From the sequence record PQ227709: 40,175 nucleotides of DNA; one strand, given 5' to 3'. The stretch's first letter is position 1. Each line of letters opens with the position of its first letter. A program made the position numbers and the translations under genes. The notes below the pieces were generated by a model. That model searched no databases. It worked only from the letters and a program-made list of their open reading frames with translations, and had not been told where the DNA came from. Source of the stretch: Escherichia phage 536_P3. Below, one piece after another: positions 1,100 through 40,175 of this stretch.

Positions 1100-1558
1100 A
1101 TGATTTTCACTAAAGAGCCTGCTAACGTCTTCTATGTACTGGTGTCAGCTTTCCGTTCAAACCTTGATGATGAGGTTAACATGAGTCGCCACCGCCACAT
1201 GGTTAGCACTTTACGTGCCGCACCGGGTATTTATGGCTCCGTTGAGTCAACCGATTTGACCGGGTGCTATCGTGAGGCAATCGCAAGCGCACCGACTGAG
1301 GAAAAAACGGTTCGTGTACGCTGCAAGGACAAGGCGCAGGCACTCAATGTTGCACGCTTAGCTTGCAATGAGTGGGAGCAAGATTGCGTACTGGTATACA
1401 AATCACAGACTCACACGGCTGGTCTGGTGTACGCTAAAGGTATCGACGGGTATAAGGCTGAACGTCTGCCGGGTAGCTTCCAAGAGGTTCCTAAAGGCGC
1501 ACCGCTGCAAGGCTGCTTTACGATTGACGAGTTCGGTCGCCGCTGGCAGGTGGCCTAA
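1100..1558 (+). CDS. 0.3: S-adenosyl-L-methionine hydrolase/lyase (SAMase), anti-restriction gene 0.3 of the T3 type
   Basis: 152-aa ORF, ATG with GAGG RBS; sequence MIFTKEPANVFYVLVSAF...FGRRWQV matches my recollection of T3 SAMase; first gene after the early promoters. Confidence 0.9.
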   Translation: MIFTKEPANVFYVLVSAFRSNLDDEVNMSRHRHMVSTLRAAPGIYGSVESTDLTGCYREAIASAPTEEKTVRVRCKDKAQALNVARLACNEWEQDCVLVYKSQTHTAGLVYAKGIDGYKAERLPGSFQEVPKGAPLQGCFTIDEFGRRWQVA

Positions 1559-1559
1559 C

Positions 1560-1715
1560 ATGAATCGTTATTACATCAACGTACCGGGCTGGGGTGGGTC
1601 TCTAACCTGCTACGGATACAACGAACGGGACGCACGGAAACGTTTTAGAGAACAACACGGCTTCGGAAGGCTTCCTAATGGGACGCGCCTATGGCTGGAC
1701 GCCCGTGATTGGTAA
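1560..1715 (+). CDS. Hypothetical 51-aa early protein (gene 0.4/0.45 position)
   Basis: ATG at 1560 overlaps the 0.3 stop (TAACATG); the track ORF 1368..1715 is an upstream extension in a frame overlapping 0.3. Confidence 0.55.
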   Translation: MNRYYINVPGWGGSLTCYGYNERDARKRFREQHGFGRLPNGTRLWLDARDW

Positions 1716-7319: not shown

Positions 7320-8366
7320 ATGAACATCTTCAATACCAACCCATTCAAAGCTGTGTCATTCGTAGAGTCTGCCGTTAAGAAAGCGCTGGAGACCTCCGGC
7401 TACCTGATGGCTGACATTAAGTATGATGGCGTGCGTGGTAACATTGTGGTTGACAACGTGGCTGAGGCCGCATGGCTGTCCCGCGTGTCCAAGTTCATCC
7501 CGGCGCTGGAACACCTGAACGGTTTCGATAAGCGCTGGCAGCAACTTCTTAACGATGACCGCTGCATCTTCCCGGATGGCTTCATGCTGGATGGTGAACT
7601 GATGGTCAAAGGTGTAGACTTCAACACCGGGTCTGGCCTGCTGCGTACCAAGTGGCTCAAGAAGGATAACGCCGATTTCCATAACGTAATGGTCACACCA
7701 GACATGCTCAAGCCACGTAAGGTGGGAGTAGCTAAACGGGTTCGCACCGCCTTTGAGTTGGACACTAAGCGCCTGAGCGTGCGCCTGTATGCGGTCATGC
7801 CGATTCACATTGCGGAGTCTGGCGAGGATTACGATGTGCAGAACCTGCTGATGCCATATCATGTGGAAGCCATGCGCTCTCTTCTGGTTGAATACTTCCC
7901 GGAAATCGAGTGGCTTATCGCTGAGACCTACGAGGTCTACGATATGGATTCACTGAGTGAACTGTACGAGGCCAAGCGTGCCGAAGGCCACGAGGGTCTC
8001 ATTGTGAAAGACCCACAGGGCATCTACAAGCGAGGCAAGAAGTCTGGCTGGTGGAAGCTCAAGCCTGAGTGTGAGGCTGATGGTATCATTCAGGGTGTCA
8101 ATTGGGGAACCGAAGGTTTAGCTAACGAGGGCAAAGTGATTGGCTTTAGTGTGCTTCTTGAGACTGGTCGTTTAGTAGACGCCAACAACATCTCTCGCGC
8201 ACTGATGGACGAGTTCACAGCCAACGTTAAGGCACACAGTGAAGACTTCTACAATGGGTGGGCCTGTCAGGTCAACTATATGGAAGAGACCCCGGATGGC
8301 TCCCTGCGTCACCCTAGCTTCGAAAAGTTCCGAGGCACTGAGGACAACCCTCAAGAGAAAATGTAA
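7320..8366 (+). CDS. 1.3: ATP-dependent DNA ligase
   Basis: Adenylation motif KYDGVRG; C-terminus ...ETPDGSLRHPSFEKFRGTEDNPQEKM matches recalled T7 ligase; ATG 7320 preferred over track start 7305 because of GAGG RBS 9 nt upstream. Confidence 0.93.
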   Translation: MNIFNTNPFKAVSFVESAVKKALETSGYLMADIKYDGVRGNIVVDNVAEAAWLSRVSKFIPALEHLNGFDKRWQQLLNDDRCIFPDGFMLDGELMVKGVDFNTGSGLLRTKWLKKDNADFHNVMVTPDMLKPRKVGVAKRVRTAFELDTKRLSVRLYAVMPIHIAESGEDYDVQNLLMPYHVEAMRSLLVEYFPEIEWLIAETYEVYDMDSLSELYEAKRAEGHEGLIVKDPQGIYKRGKKSGWWKLKPECEADGIIQGVNWGTEGLANEGKVIGFSVLLETGRLVDANNISRALMDEFTANVKAHSEDFYNGWACQVNYMEETPDGSLRHPSFEKFRGTEDNPQEKM

Positions 8367-8376
8367 CCAACTCACC

Positions 8377-8408
8377 GGCTCACCTTCACGGGTGGGCCTT
8401 TCTTCGTT
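8377..8408 (+). terminator. Early terminator TE for host RNAP (intrinsic hairpin plus U-tract)
   Basis: ggctcaccttcacgggtgggcc followed by tttcttcg, directly after the ligase stop. Confidence 0.7.
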
Positions 8409-8413
8409 CTAGG

Positions 8414-8438
8414 GAATTAACCCTCACTAACAGGAGAC
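8414..8438 (+). promoter_or_regulatory. T3-type phage promoter (phi1.5/1.6)
   Basis: gaattaaccctcactaacaggagac. Confidence 0.8.
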
Positions 8439-8445
8439 ACACACC

Positions 8446-8523
8446 ATGTGGCTTATCCTATTCGCTATCGTCGCAACGCTGGGATTAATGGTTGCCGACG
8501 ACAACATTTGGCCTGATTGTTAA
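8446..8523 (+). CDS. Small hydrophobic peptide (gene 1.5 position)
   Basis: 25-aa ORF MWLILFAIVATLGLMVADDNIWPDC with AGGAGA RBS; below track cutoff. Confidence 0.45.
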   Translation: MWLILFAIVATLGLMVADDNIWPDC

Positions 8524-8535
8524 GGAGACAACATC

Positions 8536-8793
8536 ATGCGTTTACACTTCAACAAATCCAATGGCATCTTTTCGGTTCGCCGTGAAGACCGCTCTACAGC
8601 AGTGGCCTCTGAGCGCAACGCCAAGCTGCCGCTGATTGGTTCGGTCGTCCCATTGTCGCCCCGTGTTCACCTGCTGATTACTCGTGGCGAGTTCGTAAAG
8701 GCGATGAACAAAGAGCGCCCACATCTGGAAGCTGTGGTCACTTACTGGCCTCGCATCCGCCTGTTCGTTAAGTGGATTAAGGAGGTGCTGTAA
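8536..8793 (+). CDS. 1.6: Gene 1.6 protein
   Basis: 85-aa ORF with AAGGAGA RBS; MRLHFNKSNGIFSVRREDRS...IKEV resembles recalled T7 gp1.6. Confidence 0.8.
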   Translation: MRLHFNKSNGIFSVRREDRSTAVASERNAKLPLIGSVVPLSPRVHLLITRGEFVKAMNKERPHLEAVVTYWPRIRLFVKWIKEVL

Positions 8794-9269
8794 TGCTGCA
8801 ACATCATTGGAACAAACCAGACTTAGAGGCTCGCTTCCCGGTTAACTCTGTTGTGCGCTACTCTGGCGGTGGTCTCAAGCGCATCTTAGGTATGAGCGGA
8901 GTGGTCACTGGTCACTCGCACACAGGTCGCGTTAAGGTTCGCTTCGGTACTCAGAACGCTGAGGTTCTTCCTGACAACCTGATTCCGCTGCCTAAAGTAG
9001 GCCAGAACGTGGAAGCACCGAAGACAGAAGTCAAGTCTGACGTAACCCACCCTAACCACTACATGTTGTTCGACAACGTGGAAGCCATTGAGGTTATCGC
9101 CCGGTCAATGACCGTCGAGCAATTCAAAGGCTACGTGCTGGGAAACATCCTGAAATACCGTCTGCGTGCTGGTAAGAAATCAGAACTGGCAACGATGGAG
9201 AAAGACCTTAAGAAAGCGGCTTTCTATCAGGAACTGTTTGACAAGTATAAAGGTCTGTGCCATGCGTAG
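8793..9269 (+). CDS. 1.7: Gene 1.7 protein (nucleotide kinase family in T7), short form
   Basis: 158 aa; C-terminal HYMLFDNVEAIEVIARSMTVEQFKGYVLGNILKYRLRAGKKSELA matches recalled T7 gp1.7 C-terminus; TAATG coupling to 1.6. Confidence 0.8.
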   Translation: MLQHHWNKPDLEARFPVNSVVRYSGGGLKRILGMSGVVTGHSHTGRVKVRFGTQNAEVLPDNLIPLPKVGQNVEAPKTEVKSDVTHPNHYMLFDNVEAIEVIARSMTVEQFKGYVLGNILKYRLRAGKKSELATMEKDLKKAAFYQELFDKYKGLCHA

Positions 9270-9708
9270 AACCAATCCAACAACCGGACTACCGTTTAAG
9301 CGTGGCGATGTTCGTGAGGATGGCTACAGGTTTCTGACGTACCAGAAGAGTGTTGTCCGAAAGGATGGCACTTTCAAGGAAGTTTGGATTCATCCAGACA
9401 AGTACGAGGCAACACTGAAAGGAATCTCTAAGGCTGGCGTTAAGTGTCAGCGTGCTCGAAGGGCAAAGCAGAAGGTGTGGGTAGATGAATACAAAGTGTC
9501 TCGCGGGTGTGAGCGCTGCGGCTTCGACAGTCACCCTTCCGCCTTGGACTTTGACCACATGGACAGGAGCCTAAAGTCGTTTGAGATTAGCCAACACATT
9601 GGCCTAAAGTCTGACGATGAGTTGATGGCAGAAATCCAGAAGTGTAGAATCCTGTGCGCCAACTGTCACAGAATCAAATCGTTTGAGGAAGGAGACTATC
9701 TAAGATGA
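9262..9708 (+). CDS. HNH family endonuclease, putative free-standing homing endonuclease
   Basis: First ATG of track ORF 9166..9708, overlapping the 1.7 stop; motif CERCG...DFDHMDRSLKSF...ILCANCHRIK (CxxC...DH...N...CxxCH). Confidence 0.75.
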   Translation: MRRTNPTTGLPFKRGDVREDGYRFLTYQKSVVRKDGTFKEVWIHPDKYEATLKGISKAGVKCQRARRAKQKVWVDEYKVSRGCERCGFDSHPSALDFDHMDRSLKSFEISQHIGLKSDDELMAEIQKCRILCANCHRIKSFEEGDYLR

Positions 9709-9851
9709 CGCTTCGTGAATGCTGCGATTGGTGTGCCGCTAAGTGGAACCAAGCTATTGAGGATGGTGACAAGGCGGCTGCTGACGCTTACCAACAACTG
9801 TACGCGCTGTGGGAGCGGCGCTTTAAGGAGGCTCAAAGTGGAGCAACGTGA
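9705..9851 (+). CDS. 1.8: Gene 1.8 protein
   Basis: 48-aa [19 protein letters not shown]...[21 protein letters not shown] overlap with the HNH stop, GAAGGAGA RBS; resembles recalled T7 gp1.8. Confidence 0.7.
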
Positions 9852-10002
9852 ACAGAAGTACCTTCTGACGATTGAAGGTAACACCGAGTCCTTTGAGGTT
9901 CCGGTATTCGCCCGGTCTCTCGAAGAGGCAACGCTACAGGCTGAACATTACGAGGACGCTGGCTTCATTGTGAGCCGCATCCGTCCAGAAGTGAAAGCCT
10001 AA
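9838..10002 (+). CDS. 2: Gene 2 protein (inhibitor of host RNA polymerase)
   Basis: ...[38 protein letters not shown] resembles T7 gp2 (SFEVPIYAETLDEAL...GFEVTRVRP); inferred GTG start at 9838, 6 nt after AAGGAGG. Confidence 0.7.
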
Positions 10003-10026
10003 TTACCCTCACTAAAGGGAACAACC
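10003..10026 (+). promoter_or_regulatory. T3-type phage promoter (phi2.5)
   Basis: ttaccctcactaaagggaacaacc. Confidence 0.75.
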
Positions 10027-10054
10027 CAATCATTAACCACAAAGGAGAAACATT

Positions 10055-10756
10055 ATGGCTGGTTTCAAGAAGAAAATCTACACCTCTGGTCTTGGCACTG
10101 CTGAGCCTTATGCTTACCTGAGTAAGCCAGATTACGGCAACGAAGAGCGGGGCTTTGGCAACCCTCGTGGTATCTATAAGGTAGACCTGACTCTTTCCAA
10201 TAAAGACCCGCGCTGTCAGGCGATGGTCGATGAAATCGTGAAGACTCACGAAGAGGCTTATGCTGCTGCCGTGGAAGAGTTCGAGGCTAACCCGCCGCAG
10301 GCACAGCGTGGTAAGAAACCGCTGAAACCTTACGAGGGCGACATGCCGTTCTTCGATAACGGTGACGGTACGACTACCTTCAAGTTCAAATGCTATGCGT
10401 CTTTCCAAGACAAGAAGACCAAAGAGACCAAACACATTAATCTGGTCGTGGCCGATAGCAAGGGCAAGAAGATTCAGGACGTTCCGATTATCGGCGGCGG
10501 CTCTAAGCTGAAAGTGAAATACTCTCTGGTGCCTTACAAGTGGAACACAGCTGTGGGCGCAAGCGTCAAGCTGCAACTGGAGTCCGTGATGCTGGTCGAA
10601 CTGGCTACCTTCGGTGGTGGTGGCGGTGAAGATGAGTGGGCCGATGAAGTCGAAGATGGTGGTTACACTGCGAGTGAATCCCGTCAGTCCAGCGATGAGC
10701 AGGAGTGGCAGGAAGACGAGCACGAAGAAACCCCGGATGAGGATGAAGACTTTTGA
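10055..10756 (+). CDS. 2.5: Single-stranded DNA-binding protein
   Basis: 233 aa with acidic C-terminal tail ...EDEHEETPDEDEDF as in T7 gp2.5. Confidence 0.92.
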   Translation: MAGFKKKIYTSGLGTAEPYAYLSKPDYGNEERGFGNPRGIYKVDLTLSNKDPRCQAMVDEIVKTHEEAYAAAVEEFEANPPQAQRGKKPLKPYEGDMPFFDNGDGTTTFKFKCYASFQDKKTKETKHINLVVADSKGKKIQDVPIIGGGSKLKVKYSLVPYKWNTAVGASVKLQLESVMLVELATFGGGGGEDEWADEVEDGGYTASESRQSSDEQEWQEDEHEETPDEDEDF

Positions 10757-11208
10757 GTCGCCTGAACCGCGAACAACTGCAAGCTAAGATTCGTGCCAAT
10801 GTAGAACTGGAGGGCGACTGCTGGATTTGGCAGAAGTCCTTCGGTTCTCATGGATACGGTAACATAGGCACTGGTGGCGGTCGAAATGAGACCGTCCATC
10901 GGGTGTCTCATAAAGTGTTTAACGGAGAGATACCCAAGGGTCTGATTGTCTTACATAGCTGCGACAACAGGAAGTGCTGCAACCCGGCACATCTTCGAGC
11001 GGGAACTAGGGTTGACAACATGAAGGATGCCTTGCACCGCTCCCCAATAAAGCGCAAGCTGACACTGGAGGAAGCACAGGAGATTTATGATTCTAAGCTG
11101 TCACAAAGAAAACTCGCTGAACTCTATGGTGTATCTCAGAGATTAATCTGGAACATAAAGAGAGGTGTAGCATGGCAGCATATGGTGCAAAAGGAATCCG
11201 AAAAGTAG
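10753..11208 (+). CDS. HNH endonuclease with C-terminal helix-turn-helix, putative homing endonuclease
   Basis: 151-aa ORF with TTG start overlapping the 2.5 stop (no ATG upstream of the conserved core); motifs GDCWIW...GYG...HRVSH...LHSCDNRKCCNPAHL; C-terminal LSQRKLAELYGVSQRLIWNI HTH-like. Confidence 0.7.
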   Translation: MSRLNREQLQAKIRANVELEGDCWIWQKSFGSHGYGNIGTGGGRNETVHRVSHKVFNGEIPKGLIVLHSCDNRKCCNPAHLRAGTRVDNMKDALHRSPIKRKLTLEEAQEIYDSKLSQRKLAELYGVSQRLIWNIKRGVAWQHMVQKESEK

Positions 11209-11621
11209 GTTCCTTCCGTTCTGGACTTGAAGATAAAGTCCACAAACAACTGGAGGCTCGTGGTGTAAAGGCTGAATATGAAATGTGGAAGATTCCATAT
11301 GTTGTGCCAGCCAGTAATCACACGTACCGACCAGATTTTATTTTACCCAATGGAATCATTGTCGAGACCAAGGGACTTTGGGAAGCTGATGACCGGAAGA
11401 AGCACTTGCTCATCCGTGAGCAGTACCCTGAACTGGACATTCGTCTGGTGTTCTCTTCGAGTCGTACCAAAATCTACAAAGGGTCTCCAACTTCTTACGC
11501 TGAGTTCTGCGAGAAGAAGGGGATTCTCTTTGCCGACAAACTGATACCCGTCGAGTGGCTCAAGGAGCCTAAGCGGGAAGTACCGTGGGAGAAACTAATT
11601 CGTGTAAAGGAGAAAAAGTAA
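11172..11621 (+). CDS. 3: Endonuclease I (Holliday junction resolvase)
   Basis: MAAYGAKGIRKVGSFRSGLEDKV...PASNHTYRPDF... matches recalled T7 gp3. Confidence 0.93.
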   Translation: MAAYGAKGIRKVGSFRSGLEDKVHKQLEARGVKAEYEMWKIPYVVPASNHTYRPDFILPNGIIVETKGLWEADDRKKHLLIREQYPELDIRLVFSSSRTKIYKGSPTSYAEFCEKKGILFADKLIPVEWLKEPKREVPWEKLIRVKEKK

Positions 11622-17574: not shown

Positions 17575-17783
17575 GTAAGCCTTTAGACTATATGGGCAAT
17601 GAGATTAATATTGGTGACACGGTGATATACGTTGGGGCTGGTTACACCACGTTCAAACGTGAGTCTGTCACAAAGATAAGCCCGAAGACTGTCACGCTTG
17701 GGGATAAGTCACGCTTGGATTCGTTCACTCGACGCCCGTTCGCTTCCGTAATTGTCGTGAAGCAAGGAGGAGGTGTGGTATGA
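17571..17783 (+). CDS. Hypothetical 70-aa protein between 5.7 and 5.9
   Basis: ATG 17571 overlaps the 5.7 stop (ATGA) and its own stop overlaps the 5.9 start (ATGA); track ORF 17517..17783 is an upstream extension. Confidence 0.55.
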   Translation: MSKPLDYMGNEINIGDTVIYVGAGYTTFKRESVTKISPKTVTLGDKSRLDSFTRRPFASVIVVKQGGGVV

Positions 17784-22715: not shown

Positions 22716-23762
22716 ATGGCTAACATTCAAGGCGGACAGCAAATTGGTACTAATCAGGGTAAGGGTCAGTCCGCAGCGGACAAACTGGCGCTGTTCCTGA
22801 AAGTGTTCGGCGGTGAAGTCCTGACGGCTTTCGCTCGCACCTCCGTGACCATGCCTCGTCACATGCTGCGCTCTATTGCTTCTGGTAAGTCCGCACAGTT
22901 CCCTGTGATTGGTCGCACCAAAGCTGCTTACCTGAAACCGGGTGAGAACCTCGATGACAAACGTAAGGATATCAAACACACCGAGAAGGTAATCCACATT
23001 GATGGCCTGCTGACTGCGGACGTTCTGATTTACGACATTGAGGACGCGATGAACCACTACGACGTTCGCGCTGAGTACACCGCACAGTTGGGTGAATCTC
23101 TGGCGATGGCGGCTGACGGTGCTGTACTGGCTGAACTGGCTGGTCTGGTTAACCTGCCTGACGCCTCCAATGAGAACATCGAGGGTCTCGGTAAGCCAAC
23201 CGTACTGACTCTGGTTAAGCCGACCACTGGCGACCTGACTGACCCGGTTGAGCTGGGTAAAGCGATTATTGCTCAGTTGACTATCGCTCGTGCGTCTCTG
23301 ACCAAGAACTACGTTCCGGCTGCTGACCGTACCTTCTATACCACTCCTGATAACTACTCTGCGATTCTGGCTGCCCTGATGCCGAACGCTGCAAACTATC
23401 AGGCACTGATTGACCCTGAGCGCGGTACTATCCGTAACGTGATGGGCTTCGAAGTGGTTGAGGTTCCGCACCTGACCGCTGGTGGCGCTGGTGATACCCG
23501 TGAGGATGCCCCGGCTGACCAGAAGCACGCTTTCCCGGCGACTTCCAGCACTACCGTTAAGGTTGCTCTGGATAACGTTGTGGGCCTGTTCCAGCACCGC
23601 TCTGCGGTTGGTACGGTCAAGCTGAAAGACTTGGCTCTGGAGCGCGCTCGTCGTGCGAACTATCAGGCTGACCAGATTATCGCTAAATACGCGATGGGTC
23701 ACGGCGGTCTGCGTCCAGAAGCTGCTGGCGCTATCGTGCTGCCAAAGACTTCGAAGGCTTAA
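22716..23762 (+). CDS. 10A: Major capsid protein 10A
   Basis: 348 aa, AAGGAGA RBS; MANIQGGQQIGTNQGKGQSAADKLALFLKVFGGEVLTAFARTSV... matches recalled T3/T7 capsid. Confidence 0.96.
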   Translation: MANIQGGQQIGTNQGKGQSAADKLALFLKVFGGEVLTAFARTSVTMPRHMLRSIASGKSAQFPVIGRTKAAYLKPGENLDDKRKDIKHTEKVIHIDGLLTADVLIYDIEDAMNHYDVRAEYTAQLGESLAMAADGAVLAELAGLVNLPDASNENIEGLGKPTVLTLVKPTTGDLTDPVELGKAIIAQLTIARASLTKNYVPAADRTFYTTPDNYSAILAALMPNAANYQALIDPERGTIRNVMGFEVVEVPHLTAGGAGDTREDAPADQKHAFPATSSTTVKVALDNVVGLFQHRSAVGTVKLKDLALERARRANYQADQIIAKYAMGHGGLRPEAAGAIVLPKTSKA

Positions 23763-23896
23763 GGGTAGCGCCTTTGAGTATGAACGCGGAGAGTGAAGTG
23801 GAGCCGACCCAAGAGGTAGCCGCCGAAGTAGCTCTCACGCCTCAACAGAAGGCCGCCATTACTCGTGCTCGTAACAAGGCACTTAAGTCTCAATAA
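23756..23896 (+). CDS. 10B: Gene 10B C-terminal extension segment, reachable by -1 frameshift near the 10A end
   Basis: The -1 frame is open from 23687 to a TAA at 23894..23896 (…GLRVAPLSMNAESEVEPTQEVAAEVALTPQQKAAITRARNKALKSQ); T7/T3 make a minor capsid protein 10B this way. Confidence 0.5.
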   Translation, partial: GLRVAPLSMNAESEVEPTQEVAAEVALTPQQKAAITRARNKALKSQ

Positions 23897-23907
23897 CAAC
23901 AACAAGC

Positions 23908-23950
23908 AAACCCCTTGGGTTCCCTCTTTGGGAGTCTGAGGGGTTTTTTG
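23908..23950 (+). terminator. Tphi-like late terminator
   Basis: caaaccccttgggttccctctttgggagtctgaggggttttttg, GC hairpin plus T6 run after the capsid gene, analogous to T7 Tphi. Confidence 0.8.
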
Positions 23951-39924: not shown

Positions 39925-40175
39925 TCTCATAGTGTAAGAACCTCAAGTACCCCCCATAGCCCTCTTAAAGCCACCTAAAGTCAGCCCTACCCCTAGGGTT
40001 TAACCTTCGGTTAACCTTGAGTGTAGCGATAGCTCACTACGGTATCTCTCCAAGTGGTCTATAGGATAGCCTAAAGTGTTGCCTAAAGTCAATACCTAAA
40101 GTGGTGGATGGCTTAAGGAGAGGCTTAAAGAGTGTCCTAGTGTACCAGTTCGATAGTACATCTCTATGTGTCCCT
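39925..40175. repeat. Right direct terminal repeat (copy of 1..251)
   Basis: Direct comparison with the first 251 nt of the window. Confidence 0.9.

Follow-up and report, generated by a model that had tools for sequence, protein, structure and literature searches.

How did a small nuclease-like gene come to lie between genes 1.7 and 1.8 of Escherichia phage 536_P3? The window analysed here is the whole of sequence record PQ227709 (40,175 nt), which is a complete T3-like (Teetrevirus) genome with T3-type promoters. The gene in question is an open reading frame (ORF) of 447 nt at 9262..9708 (+) that encodes a 148-aa protein with an HNH motif. Our comparison with related phages suggests that a free-standing HNH homing endonuclease gene has entered a T3-like phage where 1.7 meets 1.8, and we put the probability of this reading at roughly three in four. 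Several HNH genes are known from T7/T3-like phages, and in the RefSeq records of phiA1122 and KP34 members of the family already bear the annotation ‘HNH endonuclease’ at this position. The window allele is new as a sequence, its best match in the phage collection being 61.5% identical and a 97% match being found only on a 2.1-kb metagenome contig. It also seems to be the first of its sub-lineage in a Teetrevirus backbone.

An insertion of 443 nt at the 1.8 start codon

A megablast search with the 1.8-kb region around the HNH gene found 108 related phage records, none of which covers ≥80% of the query or carries the window allele; most span ∼1,366 nt versus 1,801 nt in the window. All the Teetrevirus records recovered join genes 1.7 and 1.8 directly, with the exception of two phages, Klebsiella phage 6996 and Citrobacter phage SH1. 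The closest genome overall, Pantoea phage vB_PdeP_F2M1C (95.5% identity over 96% of the first 25 kb), is among those that pass straight from 1.7 to 1.8 without an HNH gene. We aligned the junction in seven insert-free genomes (T3, F2M1C, LL2, KLB4, AP5, ESh12 and Sekstaphage-1, the HNH gene being absent from all seven) and in five insert-bearing sequences including the window. In the insert-free genomes it reads …CTGTG[C/T]TATGACGCTTCG…, where the 1.8 ATG falls within the final codons of 1.7 (…LCYDAS-stop), and the uninterrupted 1.7/1.8 junction of such DNA contains CTGTGCTATGACGCTTCG. The window reads …CTGTGCCATG[CGTAG … CTAAGATG]ACGCTTCG…. An inserted segment of 443 nt is thereby placed at the start codon of 1.8, at 9265..9707 (+); because the ATG is repeated at both ends, bounds of 9262..9704 are equally valid. 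An alignment of this kind, with relatives lacking the insert, was the check that the initial annotation of this DNA had proposed, and it yields exact boundaries. Nor is the ORF a constant feature of T7-like phages: it is absent from nearly all T7/T3-like genomes.

The insertion reuses the translation signals of its host. Insert-free genomes use an ATG position and an AAGG ribosome-binding region for 1.8 that in the window have passed to the HNH gene, so that the translation-initiation region at 9250..9264 (+; AAGG, 8 nt, ATG) corresponds in the junction alignment to the site annotated as the 1.8 ribosome-binding site in the LL2 and KLB4 records. At its other end, the 3′ end of the HNH gene (9686..9708, +), which encodes …FEEGDYLR-stop, contains a new Shine-Dalgarno sequence, AGGAG (9690-9694), and an ATGA for 1.8; the allele of 6996 and SH1 has an equivalent GAGGGAGAC…ATGA at its 3′ end. 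Insertion alters the C-terminus of gp1.7, which ends in …LCHA in the window versus …LCYDAS in insert-free genomes. Judging from these signals, both neighbours should stay translatable, with only the last gp1.7 residues changed. A search of the insert for a promoter or terminator of its own gave weak consensus matches only, in a number near chance expectation.

The gene itself starts with ATG at 9262-9264 and ends with TGA at 9706-9708. The mechanical ORF list gives the longest ORF in the same frame from a GTG at 9166; we took the 9262 ATG as the start because all homologues begin at this residue (MKRxNP…). The start codon lies inside the last codons of gene 1.7 (ATGCGTAG), 3 nt upstream of the 1.7 stop (TAG, 9267-9269), and the two genes overlap by 8 nt. 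At the other end the overlap is 4 nt, the HNH TGA sharing the sequence ATGA with the 1.8 ATG (9705-9707). The initial annotation had placed an intact 148-aa ORF at these coordinates, with 1.7 and 1.8 as its flanking genes and with the ATGA junction, and on all these points it is correct. The two flanking genes are, as it had stated, adjacent in T7, and we find them adjacent and overlapping in both T7 and T3. Its statement that the HNH start overlaps the 1.7 stop needs rewording: the genes do overlap, by the 8 nt just given, but the ATG precedes the stop codon and does not fall on it.

Upstream, gene 1.7 (8793..9269, +) belongs to the DUF3310, or gp1.7 nucleotide-kinase, family (Pfam DUF3310, E=5e-22) and is 91% identical to T3 gp1.7. 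Downstream, gene 1.8 (9705..9851, +; phrog_1312, E=4e-19) aligns with the 1.8 of T3 and F2M1C from the second codon on. In the wider order, gene 1.6 precedes 1.7-HNH-1.8 and gene 2 (RNA polymerase inhibitor) follows it.

An Rfam scan of positions 8000-11500 at E≤1 returned no family, group I and II introns included. We therefore consider the HNH gene to be free-standing and not intron-borne, and discard an intron or ribozyme context. A search of the window for an intact copy of the insert-free junction, with up to 3 mismatches allowed, found none. Two substitutions next to the insertion, T9254 (G elsewhere) and C9261 (T elsewhere), occur in 5/5 insert-bearing Teetrevirus-type sequences and in 0/7 insert-free ones.

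The protein has a predicted HNH nuclease core

The HNH motif comprises C83-x2-C86, D98-H99 and C132-A-N134-C135-H136-R-I-K. Across 26 homologues, with identities down to 35%, residues C83, C86, H99, C132, N134 and C135 are invariant, and D98 and H136 are conserved in at least 90%. Both CxxC pairs of the structural zinc site (C83/C86 and C132/C135) are thus present without variation; also present are the D-H dipeptide that closes strand 1 and contains the catalytic His, and the helix Asn/His (N134/H136). The complete zinc-binding signature quoted in the initial annotation is therefore real and, throughout the family, invariant or nearly so.

Profile searches agree with this assignment to different degrees. 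The protein matches phrog_3106, ‘HNH endonuclease’, at E=2e-37, and Pfam PF01844 over residues 83-140 with 20.8 bits (E=4.5e-4), which is 0.6 bit below the gathering score of 21.4; PF01844 matches 14/26 family members at E<0.01. An NCBIfam scan of the protein gave no match. Full-length homologues were found by tblastn at E=2e-58 to 3e-59, and these, with the phrog_3106 match, put the ORF far beyond chance.

An AlphaFold2 (AF2) model built from the family alignment has a pLDDT of 95.5 and a pTM of 0.74. It shows a beta-hairpin at 23-43 (strands 23-32 and 38-43), a long helix at 45-81 and, in the C-terminal part, a strand at 95-99, a helix at 118-125, a strand at 128-132 and a helix at 133-142. 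In the model the two C-terminal strands and the last helix appear to form a beta-beta-alpha unit with an inserted helix. The top matches of a Foldseek comparison with the PDB are HNH nucleases (CBASS Cap5, the Gme HNH nickase 4h9d and the HNH of Cas9), at weak E-values of ∼0.2-0.5. We place the catalytic core (CxxC, DH, CxxCH) at residues 82-142, that is at 9505..9687 (+), on the strength of the Pfam match, the invariant residues and the AF2 model. The HNH assignment as a whole is well supported: sequence support is good, and structure comparison confirms it loosely. The profile search by which the proposed HNH fold was to be judged thus speaks for it, through the PHROG match and a Pfam score just under the gathering threshold, and the confident model points the same way. 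The protein would consist of an N-terminal module of ∼55 aa, a long helix and a probable zinc-stabilised HNH (beta-beta-alpha-metal) core.

Divergent alleles and unrelated nucleases at the same junction

A second allele occupies exactly the same insertion point (…CTGTGCCATG…) in the same genus. In Klebsiella phage 6996 it is a 130-aa ORF (URY98811.1, annotated ‘hypothetical protein’) with 44-46% amino-acid identity to the window protein; it has no counterpart of residues 3-12 and an incomplete hairpin in the N-terminal module. Citrobacter phage SH1 carries an allele of the 6996 type at this site, with the same ATGA junction to 1.8 as in the window. The flanks of the window and of 6996/SH1 are ∼91-93% identical over the 1.8-kb region; in SH1 the upstream flank is 97% identical to that of the window and its 1.8 is nearly identical. 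Highly divergent HNH alleles therefore sit in almost identical surroundings, and the presence of a 44-46% identical allele at the same position argues for independent acquisition at one site. In the SH1 copy (L002, about 1268..1650) a stretch of five G contains a +1 frameshift, which is due either to genuine decay or to an error in sequencing the homopolymer; the RefSeq annotation of this copy is confined to a 50-aa fragment. Two-piece tblastn matches were likewise obtained for the HNH copies of YpsP-G, FK1979 and RCIP0072. The closest copy of the window allele, 97% identical and at the same site, lies on the 2.1-kb metagenome contig (L008), where it is followed by a different 1.8 haplotype.

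In Klebsiella phage phi1_146034 (Drulisvirus; L033, 1027..1506, compared with phage CX1, L032) an unrelated HNH_3-type gene lies between the nucleotide kinase gene and a 1.8-like gene. Because this gene holds the equivalent Drulisvirus junction, we suggest that the boundary between the nucleotide kinase gene and 1.8 has been invaded repeatedly and is a hotspot for at least two nuclease families.

Relatives in other genera and their neighbours

The closest homologues in the phage collection, at 60-61% identity, are those of phiA1122 and other T7-like phages of Yersinia pestis and of ‘Enterococcus’ phage EFA-2. The phiA1122 copy (NP_848271.1, phiA1122p09) is shared by Yersinia phages Y, R, YpP-Y, YpP-R and YpsP-G. 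KP34-type copies from Drulisvirus are 57% identical (KP34 gp36, YP_003347628.1). Every one of these Yersinia-phage and Drulisvirus copies has a DUF3310 gene as its neighbour. The window allele is thus closer to the phiA1122-type and KP34-type copies (57-61%) than to the 6996/SH1 allele, and since these belong to two other genera, vertical descent is contradicted.

The locus of phiA1122, which belongs to Teseptimavirus and not to Teetrevirus, resembles that of the window in that an HNH gene of the same full-length architecture lies between a DUF3310/gp1.7-family gene and 1.8 and overlaps both. The two differ in what has moved. In phiA1122 a short (76-aa), divergent DUF3310 gene travels with the HNH gene as a two-gene cassette, and comparison with T7 shows that, within nearly identical flanks, this pair stands in place of the entire gene 1.7 of T7 and of the ∼30 nt that directly follow the 1.8 start codon; the window keeps its native T3-type 1.7, with the HNH gene alone inserted. 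KP34 likewise has its HNH gene directly downstream of a DUF3310 gene (gp35, a short ‘nucleotide kinase’), and here too occurrence within the genus is sporadic, the DUF3310 + HNH cassette being found in 15/249 Drulisvirus relatives. It differs from the window in subfamily (Slopekvirinae), in gene order (endonuclease VII - DUF3310 - HNH - RNA polymerase) and in a longer C-terminal tail of the protein. That the DUF3310 gene differs together with the HNH gene, in phiA1122 versus T7 and in KP34 versus other Drulisvirus phages, is compatible with co-conversion or with transfer of a cassette. As to EFA-2 (L006, MT350293.1), this region of its genome is nearly identical to T7 and phiA1122, which are enterobacterial phages, so its stated Gram-positive host looks doubtful.

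The first dozen contexts that we inspected always had the HNH gene beside DUF3310, with the order of the two reversed in one group of phages that encode Thy1. A sample from IMG/VR, consisting of 45 full-length relatives and 35 relatives that share the HNH half only, gave a different picture: DUF3310 adjoins the HNH gene (within 26 bp) in 7/45 of the former and in 0/35 of the latter. We therefore rejected a universal adjacency to DUF3310; the link holds for particular clusters. The remaining full-length relatives directly follow a gene for the large terminase or for a family-A DNA polymerase, or are flanked by AEP primase and UvrD helicase genes. On a neighbour-joining tree of 62 members the type of neighbour is constant within each cluster, be it DUF3310 (on either side), TerL, PolA or AEP primase/UvrD helicase. 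The window groups with phiA1122 and L009, next come KP34, L016 and L029, and the 6996 allele branches deeply on its own. A family divided into sub-lineages that each keep to a single conserved gene is what free-standing homing endonucleases are expected to show, and such neighbour-specific clusters argue against a specific partnership with the kinase. A packaging-associated HNH protein was also considered and rejected, as the window gene lies in the early/middle DNA-metabolism region and is absent from most relatives; T7-type terminase genes, as judged from gene order, are located beyond the first 25 kb, so that the distance to them is ∼25 kb or more. Full-text literature searches for a link between DUF3310 and HNH, or for the HNH lineage of the window, found no paper.

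A widespread N-terminal module

The N-terminal module (residues 1-57; 9262..9432, +) consists, in the AF2 model, of the beta-hairpin formed by strands 23-32 and 38-43 and the start of the long helix from residue 45, and we presume that it recognises DNA. A profile of residues 1-62 collected 628 clusters at 50% identity, 336 of them at E≤1e-10, and many of the proteins have 2-5 tandem copies. The consensus of the module is KRxNPxTGxPFxRGDxRxDGxxFxxY…DGxFxExW. In some of the proteins (among P0030-P0177) it is fused to another C-terminal nuclease motif, CPxLG…SPSxDRIxPxKGYxxGN…, which we read by eye, without a profile match, as Endo VII/His-Me-like. Pfam has no family that matches the single module or the multi-copy module proteins.

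We considered a WRKY-like N-terminal domain. Profile comparison with PDB sequences gave AtWRKY1 at E=0.09-0.3, with the alignment EDGYxW/F…Y.QK on the DNA-contact strand; there was no Pfam WRKY match, and Foldseek with a separate model of the N-domain gave nothing relevant, so this candidate was dropped. The module is probably one for DNA recognition, and such a role fits with the repetitive, shuffled DNA-binding domains described in other phage homing endonucleases (PMC10448857).

Other features of the genome

The window has a second homing-endonuclease-like gene, unrelated to the first, at 10753..11208 (+), which encodes 151 aa; gene 2.5 (SSB) precedes it and gene 3 (endonuclease I), with which it overlaps by 37 nt, follows. 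Its product matches Pfam HNH_3 at E=9e-13 and, weakly, a helix-turn-helix. F2M1C has a copy in the same place that is annotated ‘HNH homing endonuclease’, and the SH1 gene there carries the note ‘Homing endonuclease’; T3 and 6996 are without it. Another HNH_3-type gene, which the window does not have, lies between the DNA ligase gene and gene 1.6 in some relatives (L008, 120..596; phage LL2, L020, 1..33). The only other internal breaks in collinearity with F2M1C are at 17581..17769, where the window has ∼190 extra nt, and at 23747..23909, where F2M1C has ∼160 nt more. The end of the window (39925..40175) repeats its start (1..∼250) and is 86.5% identical to the first 230 nt of F2M1C, as would fit a genome that is complete and linear and has a direct terminal repeat of roughly 230-250 bp.

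Discussion

Our data show an HNH gene that is present in some phages and absent from others at one precisely defined site, that has its own ORF outside any intron or intein, and that bears signs of horizontal spread or independent invasion. Evidence for the latter comes from the two alleles, 44-46% identical, at one site within flanks of ∼91-93% identity, and from the greater proximity of the window allele to copies from other genera. The initial annotation had read the locus as the footprint of a free-standing homing endonuclease inserted between conserved genes, and every comparative prediction of that proposal that could be tested here was borne out. Comparable arrangements are those of MobE (HNH) in T4 and F-CphI in cyanophage S-PM2, where a small nuclease gene likewise lies between conserved genes and is sporadic among relatives (PMC2790892, PMC6083498). 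The window gene shares with them the expectation that the enzyme cuts the insert-free allele and spreads by recombinational repair together with flanking DNA. It differs in having no detectable sequence relation to them beyond the His-Me finger core and in its N-terminal module; their activity was shown, whereas the window enzyme is known from sequence.

If the gene is a homing endonuclease, its spread can be pictured as follows. During co-infection with an insert-free relative, the middle (DNA-metabolism) transcript would yield the enzyme, its synthesis being coupled to that of gp1.7. Its target would be the uninterrupted 1.7/1.8 junction or a site not far off, within the 3′ end of 1.7; recognition would rest chiefly on the N-terminal module, and the enzyme would nick or cut there. 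The phage recombination machinery could then repair the break from the HNH-bearing template, copying the gene and variable lengths of its flanks into the recipient. The carrier genome would be immune because its site is interrupted by the insertion, altered by the neighbouring substitutions T9254 and C9261, or both.

Several observations weigh against this explanation. The insert does not have a foreign base composition, its G+C being 0.49 versus 0.508 for the genome and both G+C and GC3 being close to those of the flanks. We found no clear co-conversion tract: T9254 and C9261 are the only substitutions that go with the insert, and the upstream haplotype of the window, …QFKGYVLG…, is also present in insert-free LL2 and KLB4. 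A long upstream tract was accordingly rejected, since the haplotype that the window, L008 and SH1 have in common at the 3′ end of 1.7 is not HNH-linked. The 62-member tree was built by neighbour-joining without support values, and the frameshift of SH1 may prove to be a sequencing error. Lastly, we infer cleavage by the window enzyme, its target site and its homing or over-transmission from sequence.

Could the gene be kept for the benefit of the phage? As an accessory nuclease it might cut the DNA of competitors (exclusion) or, together with the gp1.7 kinase, salvage nucleotides from degraded DNA. An intact ORF with conserved catalytic residues would suit such a role, as would an insertion that preserves the expression of both neighbours and the adjacency to DUF3310, which precedes or follows the HNH gene in about 20 contexts drawn from several groups of phages. 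We consider this unlikely, given the rarity of the gene in each genus (two other phages among the 108 Teetrevirus records, 15/249 in Drulisvirus) and the use of the same junction by an unrelated HNH_3 gene. Sister clusters are likewise tied to TerL, PolA or primase/helicase genes, which fits target choice better than partnership with a kinase, and exclusion of competitors is itself part of homing-endonuclease biology and so hardly a separate mechanism.

The same insertion could also be a stranded, immobile relic, which entered by past homing or illegitimate recombination, is now inactive or without a target, and is kept since its deletion would harm the expression signals of 1.7 and 1.8. Imprecise loss would indeed be costly, as the insert supplies the Shine-Dalgarno sequence and start context of 1.8, and decay is suggested by the apparently frameshifted copy of SH1 and by the two-piece matches in YpsP-G, FK1979 and RCIP0072. 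Yet the window ORF is full length with every conserved residue present, its 97%-identical copy on L008 lies in another flanking haplotype, suggesting recent movement or recombination, and abundant insert-free relatives with a conserved junction remain as potential targets; a relic is thus quite improbable. Finally, homologues at the 1.7/1.8 position in Teetrevirus, Teseptimavirus and Drulisvirus might point to an ancestral gene of T3/T7-like phages that was lost many times, the apparent insertion being a deletion in most relatives. This would require precise, scar-free deletions restoring the same 1.7/1.8 overlap in all recovered genomes but three phages in total. It also fits poorly with two Teetrevirus alleles that are far more divergent than the 1.8-kb region around them, one of which, that of the window, is closer to T7-like and Drulisvirus copies than to the other, and we regard it as very improbable.

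Taken alone, invasion by a free-standing homing endonuclease adds one more HNH homing-endonuclease-like gene to a T7/T3-like phage, which is real but ordinary. What makes the locus useful is that the site is defined to the nucleotide and that nearly identical insert-free genomes (T3, F2M1C, LL2) exist, so that intron-less homing becomes directly testable in a tractable phage. The mode of insertion would be of low cost, as the element takes the downstream start site and brings a replacement ribosome-binding site, leaving both neighbours expressed; for phage engineering and therapy genomics, the 1.7/1.8 junction would be a naturally permissive insertion point. The division of the family by neighbour gene, together with a repeat module that Pfam does not name and that may set target choice, provides a map of target switching. 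Tentatively, and with more doubt than conviction, we suggest that phage His-Me-finger nucleases may have in this module a widespread, hitherto undescribed repeat for DNA recognition, present in 1-5 copies and joined to at least two catalytic domains, whose sequence may decide which conserved gene (DUF3310, TerL, PolA or primase/helicase) is homed to. If this is true, the family would offer a natural ‘beads on a string’ system in which to follow the retargeting of homing endonucleases, and its simplest member would be the window enzyme, which has one module and a site with sharp bounds.

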